Virus record (IMG/VR): IMGVR_UViG_2874927903_000002
Source of the DNA: a virus
Taxonomy: Duplodnaviria; Heunggongvirae; Uroviricota; Caudoviricetes
DNA: 36,877 nucleotides
Reading direction: 5' to 3' (one strand)
Numbering within the stretch: the first letter of the stretch is position 1; every line of letters starts with the position of its first letter. Made by a program: the position numbers. This document shows positions 21,001 through 33,000 of the stretch, in pieces.

Positions 21001-24000
21001 CGCTGACGTCTCCGCCTCTCCGGCATTCTTCTTCGCCTCCTCTGCGTTACGCACCACCTCTTCCACCATCAGTTCAAAGCGACGCAGTGCCTCCGGACGG
21101 GCATCATCCTCCGTCATGGCACCGAGAAAATCATTCAGCGTACCGGGTTGAGAATCTTCATACACGGTGATAGTCCCGGCATGTGACGGCGGGAATCCCT
21201 CCACCAACAGAATAACGCTGTACTGACCATACTCAACGTCCATACTGTAACGCCCGGCTTCATCCGGATTTTCTGAGGCCAGCGTGTTCACCACCACCGT
21301 GGTACTGTTACGTTTTGCTTTCAGCTGGATTGTGCAGTTCTGTACCGGTTTTCCTGTGCCGTCTTTCAGTACACCAGAAATCTTTACTGTCATATTCACC
21401 CCACAAAAAAGCCCGCCTGAACCGGCGGGCTGTCATGACACTGTGTTACCTGGCTAATCAGAATTTATAGCCGACACCCACGATGAAACCGTCAGTGCGC
21501 CAGTCGCCACTACCGGAACCTTCATAAGCAATATCAATGGCCACGGATTCGGTCGGGTTAAACTGCACGCCAGCCCCCCACGCCAGAGACGTGTTGCTGT
21601 GGCGACCGTCATCACTTCCGGTCAGCACGTCGTGCGTTTTCCCCTTGTTGTCAGTTACGCGGAGATAATCCCCGGAGAAAGTCGACACACGGCTGTAAGC
21701 CACACCCGCCATCGCATACGCGCTGAACCATTCATTCACGGCCCCGCCATTACGCTGAACCAGCGGTTACGAACGGAATCTTCATGCCAGCGGGTATCGC
21801 TGTAGTGCGTTTTTTTCTCATCTTCAGCATTGGCATAACTGAAGGACGTAATCAGCCCCAGCGCGTCCGTAAACTCATAACGGTATTTCACGTTAATCCC
21901 GTTCAGATTATCGCTGCCGGGAGCGTTCGTACGGGCATGAAGATACCCCGCGCTCAGTGTGGACTGATGTTCAGACGCCCATGCAGGCGCACCGGATACG
22001 GACAGACAGATGGCTGCGGACAAAATGGCTGCACAAACTTTACGCATAATTACCTCTCGCTTTTCTGCAATAAAAAAGGCGCCATTTCTGGCGCCCGTAT
22101 ATGGGTTATAAAATTCAGCTGATACTGATGCCTGCGGTGGCTTTCTTCATCACCACAACCAGCAAATCGCTGATACTTGCTGTGGGATACCAGTTATTCA
22201 CCAGCCATGCTGATACCGAAAACTCCAGCGTCATGTGACCGTGACCGGCAGGCATATCAATAACGCCACTGTAAATCAGCGTATTATCCAGCGCGGTACG
22301 GTTATAAATTTCAGCACCGTTTTTCCGCACTATCAGACGGCATGAGGAGTAAATATCAGTATGCTCTCTCTCATGCTTAGCGCCGCTGAATGCCACCGCC
22401 GGAATAACAATTTGCCGGTCAAAAGGCTGATCGTCATAAATCCTGACGGTAACGGTCCCTGATGGCCACCGCTCCGGTGCCCGGGAGTCCCGCGGAAAAG
22501 CCTTACCCACTGTTTTAACGAGATCGCCTTCAATCTGGTTCGCGGACAGTTTTCCCAGAACCCGGCAGTTCTCGTTAATCGTGACGTTGTTGAGCGTCCC
22601 GGAGTTCGCATTCACGTTACCGCTGATATCAGCATTTCTTGCGGTCAGCCTGCCCTCCGGCGTCAGGGAAAACGTCGGGGGATTGCCGGACGAGGTGATA
22701 CTCACCGCAAACAGCCGCTTCAGGAACACATCGTTCATGAACAACTGATTCCCCTGCGCCACAAATAACGGCGTGGTGTTGCCGTCCTCCGGGTTAATCA
22801 TCGCAATACGGTCAGCCAGCAGCAGTATGTTGCTCAGGGGCTGGCCATCAGTATCCTCAATCCCCGCTCCAATACCGGCAACATAGGGTATGCCATTTTT
22901 TGTTTTCTGTACCTTCAGCATGTAAAGTGCAGCAAGGTCATCATTTGTGTCCTTCTGCACGCGCTGTATCTGCTGTATGGTGGCGCTCTGCTCCTCCAGC
23001 GTTTTACTGACCGTCTGTGTGATTTCATTGCGGGTTTCGGTGATGGTGGTCTTCATCTCCGCCATCTCATCCGCAAGCTGGCTGTTGTCTATCAGCTCCC
23101 ACAGCCCCTGAGCCAGATGCAGTTTTCCTATTTTTTCCCGAAACAGCCCCAGATACCCTTCTGCATCATTGCTGGCCCGTCCACTGGCCTCCACAAAAGC
23201 AGATTTCCCCACCAGGTTGACGCTGCGCACGTAAAACCAGAAATCCTTCCCGGGCTTAATGTGCGGGCCAGATACACTCCACTGACTGCCGGTCCCCAGA
23301 TAACGGGCAGAGGTTTCCACCTGAGATGTGTCTGCGATTTTTGCCTCCGAAAACCAGAGCTCAAACTGTACCGTCGGGTCATACACCGCAAGACGCGGTA
23401 CCGCTGTTATCTGAAAATACCCCGGCGTCAGTTCAATGGTGGCGGGTTTTGCTGGCGCGTTAATCCGGAAGGTGGTGGTGGCCGGTTCGCCCTGCTGGCC
23501 ATAACTGTTAATTGCCCTGACTGTCAGGGTGTATTCCCCGAGCGGCAGACCACTGAAACGATGCTCTGTATCCGCAGTGATAGCGGTGGTCACCAGACGG
23601 CTGTCTTCTCCGCTTCCGCTGGTCAGTCGCAGACTGAAGCGCACCCCCTTCACCACCCGCGGCGTGTCCCATTTCGCCTGTGCCAGATACTGGCCGTCAG
23701 CTGCGCTCACCTCCACCGTCAGGTGCTGCACTGCCGGTGGGATGACGCTGTTCAGGGAGCCTGACTGCGGCTCAAAGCGGGCACCGTTATCCACGATGGC
23801 TTCTTTTTCCGGCACGTGCTGCACCGCCGTGATGGCAAAGGTGCCGTCCGTGTTTTCCCGGACGGAGACACAGCGGAACAGGCGACGGCGCAGTGACGGC
23901 AGGGAGAGTCCCCACACCCCGTATGTCTCCACACCATCAGGCAGGGTACTGACCTGTATCCGGTCCGGCGCGGGGTGTGCGGTGATGTCCACACTCACCG

Positions 24001-30000: not shown

Positions 30001-33000
30001 CACCGCTCATCAGACGTGAGCCCACCGCCGTTGTACTGTTCAGCGCATTCTGGGCGGCGCTTCTGGCAGCAATATTTCTGTTCAGGCGTTCCTGTGTGGC
30101 CGCCAGACGGGCCTCTGCAGCAATCTGCATCTCCGTCCCGCGGGCTGCCGCCACGGCCTGCTGAGCACGGTACACGGCTGCCCTTGCCCGCGCCGTGGCA
30201 ATCTGCGTTCCCCTGAACTGTGCTTCCGCCAGTGCAACTTCATTACGTGCAGCCGTCACAAGTCCTGCCGTGGCAGACATCGCTCCGGAGGCCATATTGC
30301 CAAAGTACCGGGCAACCCCGACGGCAACCAGCGCCCCCACAGCTGTTGCCACATTATCAATCTGTCCGGCAACACCGTTCAGCACGCCGGAGAGCGTTTT
30401 TGTCACCCCGCAGGCCTCATTCACTTCGCCCACCCAGGCCATAAAGGCGTTTTCCACCTTCGTGATACTACCGGAAACCGTTTCCGGCATGGCCGCATAT
30501 TCATCACGTAATATCCCCAGCTGGCTGATTAACGCAGGGACCACTTTATCCGCTGTCAGTTTTCCGTCATCCGCCATTGCCTTCAGATCTTTACGGGCCA
30601 CACCCATCCCCGCAGCAAGCGCGCGGATCACCCGGTCGCCATTTTCGTTAACAGCATTAAATTCTTCGCCACGCAGTACACCCTGTGCCAGTGCCTGGCT
30701 GAACTGGGTGATCACCGAACCGGATTCCGCAACTCCAGCCCCTGACAGTTTCAGTCCTGTCGAAATGGCCTCCGTCACCTTCAGCACATCATCAGCACTG
30801 TAACCATATTCACGCATCGAGGCAGCCGAACGGGCAAACAGGGCCGCATTATCCGAAAACGCGGTACCTGTTCGCTGACTGATATCCATCAGCACTTTCT
30901 GTGATGACGAGAATTCATCCGATGACTGAGATGCCTGTTTCAGACGGGCATTCACGGAACCCCACTCATCGGCCAGCGAAATCAGGTGTCCGGTGGCAAA
31001 GGCACCGGCAAATGCGCCAGCCATTCCGACAGCAGAACCGCGAATTTCCGTCAACTGACTGTTCAGTTCTGCAAGGGCGCGGCGCTGTTCCCGTGCGGCA
31101 GCAGCGGCATGACGTCCGCCATTCTGTAGGGTCCGGTAATATTCACTGCCCATACGGGACGCCCGCTGGATCTCCGACTGGAATGACTGTGAATTTGCCG
31201 AAATTTTGAGTGTCGTTACGGGGAAGTCATCTTCATAGGGATCTTCGGTCAGTTAGTATTACCGACATCCATTCACCAACTTACCGGAGATAATCGATGT
31301 CAAAACCCCGATGGACCATTGAACAGAAAAGGCAGCACGTTGCTGCCTGGCGCGCCAGTGGTCTTACACGTCAGCAATACTGTGAACTCAACGATATTCC
31401 CTTCACATCACTTCGCGAATGGCCGCAGGATGTCGCAAAAGCTGAACGCCGGGCAAATGAACCGACCGTTCTTCCCGTTCATATTGCGCCACCACTGCAT
31501 GCTGATGTACCACAGCCCGTCACGAATGAGCCAGTCACGCTCTTCCTTCCCGGTGGAGTACGGATGTGCTGTCAGCCGTCACAACTTACCGATGTCTTCA
31601 GGGCACTCAAATATGCTCAGTCCTGATAATGTCTTCATCGCAATTAAACCTGTTGACATGCGCCGGGGCATCGACTCACTGACGCAGTATATACAGGATG
31701 AACTCCGGTCGACATGGCATGAGGGAGCCGCCTTCGTCTTTGTTAACAAAGCCCGTTCGCGTATCAAAGTTCTCCGGTGGGATAAACACGGGGTGTGGTT
31801 GTGTACCCGCCGTCTGCACAAAGGCAGCTTCCGCTGGCCACGTGCAAATGACGCTGCCTGGCACCTCACTCCCGACGAGTTTAACTGGCTGATTGCCGGT
31901 GTTGACTGGCAGCAGGTTAAGGGACATGACCTGACGAAATGGGTCTGGCTGAATGAACCTGAACTGCGCCCTGAAAACACGCAAAATACACTGCTAACTC
32001 AGTGAAAAATAATGAATATCCGTATCTGGAGTGGTATACTCCCCTGTATGGATATCTCCGCTCTCAACACCACGAATGACATCGAAAAACTGCGTGCTAT
32101 GGCACTTGCCATGGTACAAGAAGTCATGTCGGAGAATGCCGAAAAAGAGCGGGAATTACTGGAGAAAAGCCGGCGCATCCAGCTTCTGGAAGAAATGCTG
32201 AAACTGGTTCGTCAACAGCGCTTCGGAAAAAAATGTGAAACGCTGGCTGGTATGCAACGCTCCCTATTCGAAGAGGATGTTGATGCCGATATCGCCGCGC
32301 TTACCGCACATCTGGATAAACTGCTCCCGCAATCCCCTGAAGAAGATGAAAAAGCGTCCCGTTCACGCCCGATACGCAAACCCTTACCGGTTCATCTTCC
32401 ACGGGTGGAAAAAATTATCCAGCCGGACACTGACCATTGCCCTGAATGTGACGAGCCGCTGCACTATATCCGCGATGCGGTGAGTGAAAAGCTGGAGTAT
32501 ATTCCCGCTCACTTTGTGGTGAACCGTTATGTCCGTCCGCAATACAGTTGTCCCTGTTGCCAGAAGGTGTTCAGCGGTGAAATGCCGGCACATATCCTCC
32601 CGAAAAGTGCCGTTGAGCCATCAGTCATCGCACAGGTGATCATCAATAAATACGGTGACCACCTGCCTCTGTATCGCCAGCAACAGGTCTTTGCCCGTTC
32701 AGATGTCGGGCTGCCCGTCAGTTCGATGGCTGACATGGTTGGCGCGGCGGGTGCCGCATTATCTCCCCTGGCGGCGTTACTCCATCGCGAGTTGATAAAC
32801 CGTCCGGTGGTGCATGCAGATGAGACTACCCTGAAGATCCTGAACACGAAGAAAGGCGGTAAATCCTGCTCCGGTTATCTGTGGGCATACGTCAGTGGAG
32901 AAAGGACGGGACCGTCAGTTGTGTGCTTCGACTGCCGGACCGGACGTAGCCATGAGTATCCTGAAAACTGGCTTCAGGGCTGGGGCGGGACGCTGGTTGT

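Follow-up and report, generated by a model that had tools for sequence, protein, structure and literature searches.

The 36,877-nucleotide stretch analysed here (IMG/VR virus record IMGVR_UViG_2874927903_000002, hereafter the window) is part of the Shigella boydii chromosome CP026797.1 (GCA_002950315.1, 4,488,529 bp), with no mismatch over 14619-36877, the portion compared, in two loci from that record. An earlier note, made from the sequence alone, had called the genome Shigella-like, rightly as it turns out. The region of interest (minus strand, 19560-35154) consists of the tail end of a lambdoid prophage with the gene order V'-G-T-H-M-L-K-I-J-lom-stf-gp38. Both this order and the Pfam families of the tail genes (Phage_TAC_1, Phage_tail_T, TMP_3/Tape_meas_lam_C, Phage_min_tail, Phage_tail_L, Prok-JAB with NLPC_P60, Lambda_tail_I, GpJ domains, and Ail_Lom) are those of a lambda/HK97-like siphovirus tail module. 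The region is 95-96% identical to annotated intact phage tails in E. coli NMBU-W12E19 and phage JLK-2012. Each of four genes (lom, J, K, and H) is found as two overlapping open reading frames (ORFs) on the minus strand, as the earlier note had reported with the correct coordinates. The breaks had been attributed there either to decay of a cryptic prophage or to homopolymer errors in the assembly, the two being considered inseparable. Comparison with relatives separates them site by site. Both occur, and the lesions do not form one single class.

In the E. coli complete-genome collection, the tail region reaches at most 96% identity, which is too distant for the examination of strain-level insertions and deletions. 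Shigella assemblies were reached through exact-protein look-ups. The same arrangement of the prophage is found in CP026866, CP026762, CP026814, UAUR01000007, CP026867, AMKE01000046, AMKC01000087, Logan SRR28368849, CP049281, AMKD01000039, DBGJAZ010000068, and Logan SRR32548197. Five of the assemblies compared, all from other projects, are nearly identical to the window, with just 1-4 substitutions over 15-23.5 kb. The NCTC assembly UAUR01000007.1 shows a single substitution (at 17838) over the ~21 kb compared. Another of the five, CP049281.1 from isolate 600657, is a PacBio assembly polished at 112x with Illumina reads (PMC7545283).

The lom pseudogene, for an Ail/Lom outer-membrane protein, extends over 21458-22047 on the minus strand and is split into ORFs of 103 residues (21736-22047) and 93 residues (21458-21739). 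Alignment with two intact references (L001 and L002) reveals a deletion of 10 bp after 21737, where ACGCGCACAG is gone from between ACG repeats, and the break is unrelated to any homopolymer. The deletion is common to all the close relatives that cover the site. The N-terminal fragment is encoded on 28 contigs (NCBI and Logan, named S. boydii) and the C-terminal fragment on 32 (NCBI, Logan, ENA, and UniRef). The lesion of lom is regarded as real and inherited.

H, the gene of the tape measure protein, carries three lesions. Its main body, at 28191-31209 on the minus strand, is read as the ORFs 29684-31153 and 28191-29693. The split is caused by a frameshifting deletion of 157 bp near 29697-29701, between 16-bp repeats CGGTC(T/G)TCCAGCCCGG that match at 15 of the 16 positions. 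Another deletion, of 42 bp and in frame, is located near 29482-29490 between the 8-bp direct repeats CACGCTCT. Repeat-flanked deletions of this kind are typical of real slipped-strand or illegitimate recombination. The N-terminal and C-terminal fragments of H (489 and 500 residues) are found on 89 and 93 contigs, respectively, from NCBI and Logan and named S. boydii.

The third lesion is an insertion sequence (IS) of the IS66 family, 2,766 bp long, at 31210-33975 on the plus strand, identified by its target duplication, its inverted repeats, and its Pfam matches. It sits about 25-32 nt into H, of which the first ~8-11 codons are cut off. The target duplication consists of the 8 bp AATTTTGA, at 31202-31209 and 33976-33983, and the ends of the element are the imperfect terminal inverted repeats GTGTCGTTACGGGGAAGTCAT / GTAAGCTTCCGGGGAACTCAT. 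A first alignment with MAFFT had extended the homology nearly to the start of H, at 31224-31233, by forced alignment of the end; BLAST and the target duplication set the break at 31209/31210. The tnpA-like, tnpB, and tnpC (533 residues) genes are all intact, and the Pfam matches comprise TnpB_IS66, LZ_Tnp_IS66, zf-IS66, DDE_Tnp_IS66, and DDE_Tnp_IS66_C. Three ORFs, terminal inverted repeats, and an 8-bp duplication are the features that define the IS66 family. The broken IS66 tnpC listed in the earlier note belongs to a second element of the family, described below, and not to the one within H. The severed 5' end of H persists in an 86-residue stub ORF (33748-34008, minus strand), in which the first ~8-11 codons of H (33976-34008) read into the end of the IS. 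This fusion ORF is found on 715 contigs, named in S. flexneri, S. dysenteriae, and S. boydii.

The contig from Logan ERR039533, aligned to window positions 26787-35166, contains the IS66-family insertion, lacks both H deletions, and has an H ORF of 1053 residues. Since the insertion is present there without the deletions, it is older than they are. The lom lesion, the H lesions, and the IS insertion are common to every assembly with the same arrangement wherever the sites are covered, and these assemblies include the Illumina-polished CP049281.1 and apparent short-read assemblies. For lom (-10 bp) and for H (IS, -42 bp, and -157 bp), the identical lesion is therefore shared by independent relatives, as is the case for true inherited pseudogenes, and the lesions of H are likewise considered real and inherited. 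That all four disruptions, including those of lom and H, could be assembly errors is scarcely credible. Indel errors are clearly present in the same assembly, but deletions of 10, 42, and 157 bp and an IS insertion with its target duplication are not homopolymer events. Moreover, they are identical across at least 13 assemblies of several projects, and the resulting fragment proteins of lom and H are encoded on dozens of contigs.

J, which encodes the tail tip or host specificity protein, occupies 22115-25587 on the minus strand and is read as the ORFs 24619-25587 and 22115-24766, with products of 322 and 835 residues. The frame switches on a run of five Cs (C5) at 24635-24639, which was missed by the earlier note, and which is a run of six (C6) in near-identical genomes. 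Addition of one C to the window restores a protein of 1157 residues that is identical to WP_039059188.1/SPZ88156.1 and is found on four contigs, including Logan contigs. Six bases are present at this site in all the same-arrangement assemblies except CP026866 and CP026867; nine assemblies read C6, and AMKC01 reads GCCCCC. More distant relatives (L001, L002, and L011) read GGTGCCCCC at the corresponding position, 24634-24640 of the window, and in this lineage the C6 run was created by a G-to-C change that is synonymous (GGC to GGG on the coding strand). The loss in J had appeared from the distant references to be the deletion of a G outside a homopolymer; this was ruled out, as the change against close relatives is from C6 to C5. 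Exact-protein look-ups returned the J fragments from only 1-2 NCBI contigs, belonging to the same accession series or to PTES01, and from none in Logan. The lesion of J was not found in independent relatives, as that of an inherited pseudogene would be, and the frameshift is a probable one-base assembly error.

K encodes a JAB/NlpC-P60 (C40 peptidase) tail protein and lies at 26406-27148 on the minus strand. The N-terminal fragment starts at 27148 and ends at 26822, and the second ORF covers 26406-26873. The frame switch falls exactly on the C5 run 26855-26859, a coincidence that had already been pointed out in the earlier note, and close relatives have C6. C6 is present in all 13 of the same-arrangement assemblies compared. 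The repaired K, of 247 residues, is ACD06367.1 of S. boydii CDC 3083-94 and is found on 56 contigs. In the five near-identical assemblies, J (1157 residues) and K (247 residues) are intact, with C6 at both runs; UAUR01000007.1 also has C6 at both. As for J, no independent close relative was found to share the lesion in the manner of an inherited pseudogene, and the K frameshift is a probable one-base assembly error; that it is genuine in the window is unlikely. The link with homopolymers that the earlier note had drawn for K holds for that gene and applies to J too, but not to lom and H, which carry larger lesions. The comparison with orthologous prophages in close relatives that was proposed there finds the lom and H lesions shared and J and K intact.

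Both J and K switch frame on G6/C6 runs, and the neighbouring G and T genes are predicted to use a programmed -1 frameshift, so that the two switches might be functional, either as programmed ribosomal frameshifts or as phase-variable tracts controlling the tail genes. There is next to no chance of this. J and K are single intact ORFs in close relatives and in all the reference phages, and the split is not conserved; with no head genes and no tape measure, there would be nothing for the regulation to act on. Six bases are also short for a phase-variable tract.

The runs in J and K are not isolated cases. Relative to the window, the five near-identical assemblies are longer by a single G or C at 15493, 16947, 17339, 18993, 24634, and 26854 wherever these positions are covered. 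The first three positions have the additional base in all of L039-L041, and an extra base at 15578 is found in only two assemblies, AMKD01000039 (L040) and UAUR01000007.1 (L041). Every indel difference is a loss in the window, and 6-7 private one-base losses stand against the 1-4 substitutions. In the comparison with AMKD01000039, the contracted G/C runs amount to 3 of the 22 of length 5, two of the three of length 6, and the single runs of length 7 and 8. None of the 112 G/C runs of length 4 is contracted, nor any of the 202 A/T runs of length 4 or more. For runs of at least five bases, 7/27 G/C runs are contracted versus 0/80 A/T runs (Fisher p = 3e-5). This run-length signature, like the distribution of shared and private lesions, is directly observed. 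The losses concern one base, are biased with respect to base and length, and outnumber substitutions, as do homopolymer errors of a consensus. Private losses confined to long G/C runs are not what biological mutation produces.

Other assemblies of the accession series have private G/C-run losses of their own. According to a passage of PMC8795385, homopolymer indels are numerous in the PacBio Shigella genomes of Kim et al. 2018, which were not polished, and these closed genomes were, in the same passage, left out of the core-genome multilocus sequence typing (cgMLST) of Yassine et al. The neighbouring accession CP026832 is assigned to the Kim et al. set in a passage of PMC10132075. The losses in the window resemble the errors reported for that set in being one-base losses in homopolymers, confined to G/C runs and dependent on length. 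As in unpolished long-read assemblies, they are private or recur inside the accession series, and they are absent from the Illumina-polished near-identical genome.

It is very likely, then, that the four disruptions have two causes, lom and H having suffered inherited damage and J and K containing one-base under-calls of C6 runs in an unpolished long-read consensus, the whole region being a dead lambdoid tail. Several observations weigh against this explanation. An identical 108-residue K product, with C5, is encoded on contigs of Logan ERR039533, SRR13219835, and SRR13219836, which are 15-22 substitutions away from the window; if these runs are short-read data, the K run has probably really contracted in other lineages. 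The C5 state of J is also present in CP026866.1, CP026867.1, and PTES01000001.1, which requires recurrent error or homoplasy. We infer the sequencing history of the accession from its series, which would place CP026797.1 in the set of Kim et al. A real and very recent slippage at the J or the K run would also be formally conceivable.

Part of these observations can be accounted for. The C5 state of J in CP026866, CP026867, and PTES01000001 is explained by recurrence at fixed sites within the batch, and assemblies outside the batch yielded no evidence for a genuine contraction of J comparable to that for K. The identical truncated K of 108 residues also occurs in other prophages of CP026839 and CP026872, and outside the accession series the fragment of the window type is found in diverged alleles only.

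On a rival account, all four disruptions are real, those of J and K being the result of recent genuine slippage in G6/C6 runs during the neutral decay of a dead prophage. The prophage was already non-functional, without selection for an intact J or K, and the contraction of the K run in Logan contigs of other strains fits such a process. This account is nevertheless distinctly improbable. It would have to accommodate an excess of private one-base losses over single-nucleotide differences from all five assemblies of other projects, and a strong length dependence restricted to G/C runs with the A/T runs untouched. It would also have to accommodate an NCTC assembly with C6 at both sites at a distance of one substitution, the absence of the J fragments from Logan assemblies, and an error type reported for the data set (PMC8795385). 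In a related proposal, the G6/C6 tracts in K, and perhaps in J, would be genuine recurrent slippage hot spots that inactivate the tail genes of cryptic prophages in Shigella, and the contractions in the window would then be real; this too is most doubtful.

With inherited damage to lom and H and under-called runs in J and K, the following history may be proposed. A lambdoid prophage integrated beside yecD would have lost its head and early regions by an IS1-associated deletion, after which the IS66-family element would have entered H. In the S. boydii lineage to which the window belongs, the two repeat-mediated deletions in H and the 10-bp deletion in lom would have come later. In the true sequence, M, L, K, I, and J would still be intact ORFs, presumably since no lesion has reached them so far. 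The same type of error would be behind most of the single-base breaks elsewhere in the window. Nothing suggests that the remnant has a function. The tape measure gene was already dead when many Shigella lineages separated, and M, L, K, I, and J have remained intact, which is an ordinary lag in neutral decay.

Disruptions in cbeA, a DUF932 gene, an IS66 tnpC, and a ykgJ-like gene had been listed in the earlier note together with those of the tail genes. They are all present, but they differ in cause, and only the ykgJ-like gene is truly decayed. This pseudogene, at 18807-19130 on the plus strand, was delineated by alignment with intact ykgJ and relatives. Compared with intact ykgJ, one base is missing from the T run where the frame switch had been noticed (T4 versus T5), and 4 bp are deleted. 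Both lesions are common to E. coli TOE17, E. coli NMBU-W12E19, and Logan SRR32548197, and RefSeq marks the gene as 'frameshifted' in TOE17 and NMBU-W12E19. The window has an additional private contraction, from C7 to C6, at 18993. Pfam gave no match for either ORF, and the identity of the gene is taken from the RefSeq annotation and the alignment with intact ykgJ. The gene is a true pseudogene, with one extra artefact.

In the flank of the prophage, yecD (15247-17293), for an isochorismatase-family hydrolase, is interrupted by an IS110-family element, the transposase gene of which is at 15724-16920. The 84-residue N-terminal fragment of YecD is encoded on at least 1000 contigs and the 111-residue C-terminal fragment on 463. 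The one-base G/C-run contractions private to the window at 15493, 15578, 16947, and 17339 lie in and around the disrupted gene. That at 16947 (C4 versus C5) gives rise to a 123-residue variant of the C-terminal fragment, which is found in only eight assemblies, all of them in CP0267xx-CP0268xx; this homopolymer seems to have been mis-called recurrently across the batch.

The second IS66-family element, at ~8572-10958 on the minus strand, has its tnpC split into 123 and 376 residues and its tnpA extended. These changes are caused by one-base losses private to the window, at 9728 and 9850 in tnpC and at 10546 in tnpA. The intact TnpC of 530 residues is encoded on 225 contigs and the fragments on three NCBI contigs only, and the breaks are probable errors.

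A remnant of a CP4-44-like island, at 2803-5392 on the minus strand, contains the broken cbeA and DUF932 genes. In comparison with E. coli loci that are 99.8% identical, one C is missing from cbeA at 3080, and Cs are missing from the DUF932 gene at 4771, 4995, and 5164; the 5' end of the latter appears to be cut by IS2 at 5392, in a separate event. A CbtA look-up for comparators to window positions 1-7000 returned E. coli loci only, with no close Shigella match. The two genes were judged by analogy and by the sporadic occurrence of a fragment, as only E. coli comparators were available for this part. The 103-residue CbeA fragment appears sporadically in unrelated assemblies, and the intact form of 122 residues is on at least 1000 contigs. 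On these grounds, the single-base losses in cbeA and the DUF932 gene are probably errors. The remnant (CbtA/CbeA, RadC, antirestriction, and DUF932 genes), along with IS2 and IS1 fragments, is bracketed by two inverted copies of an IS110-family transposase gene of 391 residues, at 507-1682 (minus strand) and 7104-8279 (plus strand).

The other tail genes, all on the minus strand, are as follows. M and L, for minor tail proteins, are intact at 27857-28198 and 27159-27857, with exact-protein matches on at least 1000 contigs for M and on 641 for L (Pfam PF05939 and PF05100, respectively). The gene of the tail assembly protein I (Lambda_tail_I, PF06805) is intact at 25828-26409, with gene calls of 193 and 226 residues. 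At the distal end of the remnant, a side tail fibre of 411 residues (20158-21393) and a Gp38-like adhesin of 170 residues (19560-20072) are also intact. Upstream of H, Pfam identifies T at 34056-34337 and G at 34361-34735 (PF06223 and PF06222 in the G/T/V stretch), followed by a 3' fragment of V, the major tail gene, at 34750-35154, which contains Ig domains and is cut at 35155 by the end of an IS1. Gene calls and Pfam searches of the window revealed no head genes beyond this point. Compared with intact lambdoid phages, the remnant lacks the head, lysis, and regulatory genes.

G terminates in ...GCC AGA AAA AAG TAG, with a slippery heptamer A AAA AAG at 34364-34370 (minus strand) and T directly downstream. 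This heptamer is the canonical site predicted for the programmed -1 frameshift of the G/GT tail chaperones. This predicted switch is of a functional type and had not been listed in the earlier note.

The closest known counterpart is the tail module of Shiga toxin (Stx)-type lambdoid phages, represented by Escherichia phage JLK-2012 (Marienburgvirus) and the NMBU-W12E19 prophage, with the same order H-M-L-K-I-J-lom-tail fibre and 95-96% identity over 9.8 kb. The NMBU-W12E19 prophage has the same distal genes as the window, namely the gp38-like adhesin, a DUF4376 gene, and the frameshifted ykgJ-like gene. The window departs from these two by the IS66-family element and the two deletions in H, by the 10 bp missing from lom, and by the truncation of V by IS1.

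The flank of the remnant on the side away from V comprises dinI, IS1, yecD broken by the IS110-family element, and aspS. Elements of the IS1, IS2, and IS110 families and two of the IS66 family are all contained within 37 kb, and V, H, yecD, and the DUF932 gene are each truncated or interrupted by IS elements. IS-driven decay of the genome and its prophages is reportedly a general pattern in Shigella, said to be illustrated by Hawkey et al. in PLoS Genet in 2020. The window would be an ordinary instance of it, with lesions inherited across many S. boydii genomes. Neither aspect of the region is new: the decay of Shigella prophages by IS elements and small deletions is textbook knowledge, and the homopolymer problem of the data set is already in the literature (PMC8795385). 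What the analysis illustrates is how prophage decay can be told from assembly artefact, with public relatives, at the resolution of a single site. In this stretch, CP026797.1, and apparently its sister assemblies too, has about one G/C-homopolymer deletion per 3 kb. Taken at face value, errors at this rate would lead to too many pseudogenes being counted and to distorted results in allele-based typing.

The density of errors differs widely between assemblies of the CP026797.1 accession series. CP026872.1 shows dozens of extra one-base G/C-run losses in the tail region, which split H, L, K, I, J, and the tail fibre gene into many ORFs. UAUR01000007.1 has an extra IS66-family element between L and K (14018-16329 of locus L006) that is absent from the window, which points to recent IS activity in a near-identical strain background. 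In CP026867.1, CP026872.1, and PTES01000001.1, the lom-J-I-K-L end next to yecD continues into another, fuller prophage that has lambda-like head genes and a tape measure of the TMP_2 type; the first two of these genomes contain the IS66-disrupted remnant of H at another place. Such joins suggest that inversion or recombination has taken place between homologous tail regions of prophages.

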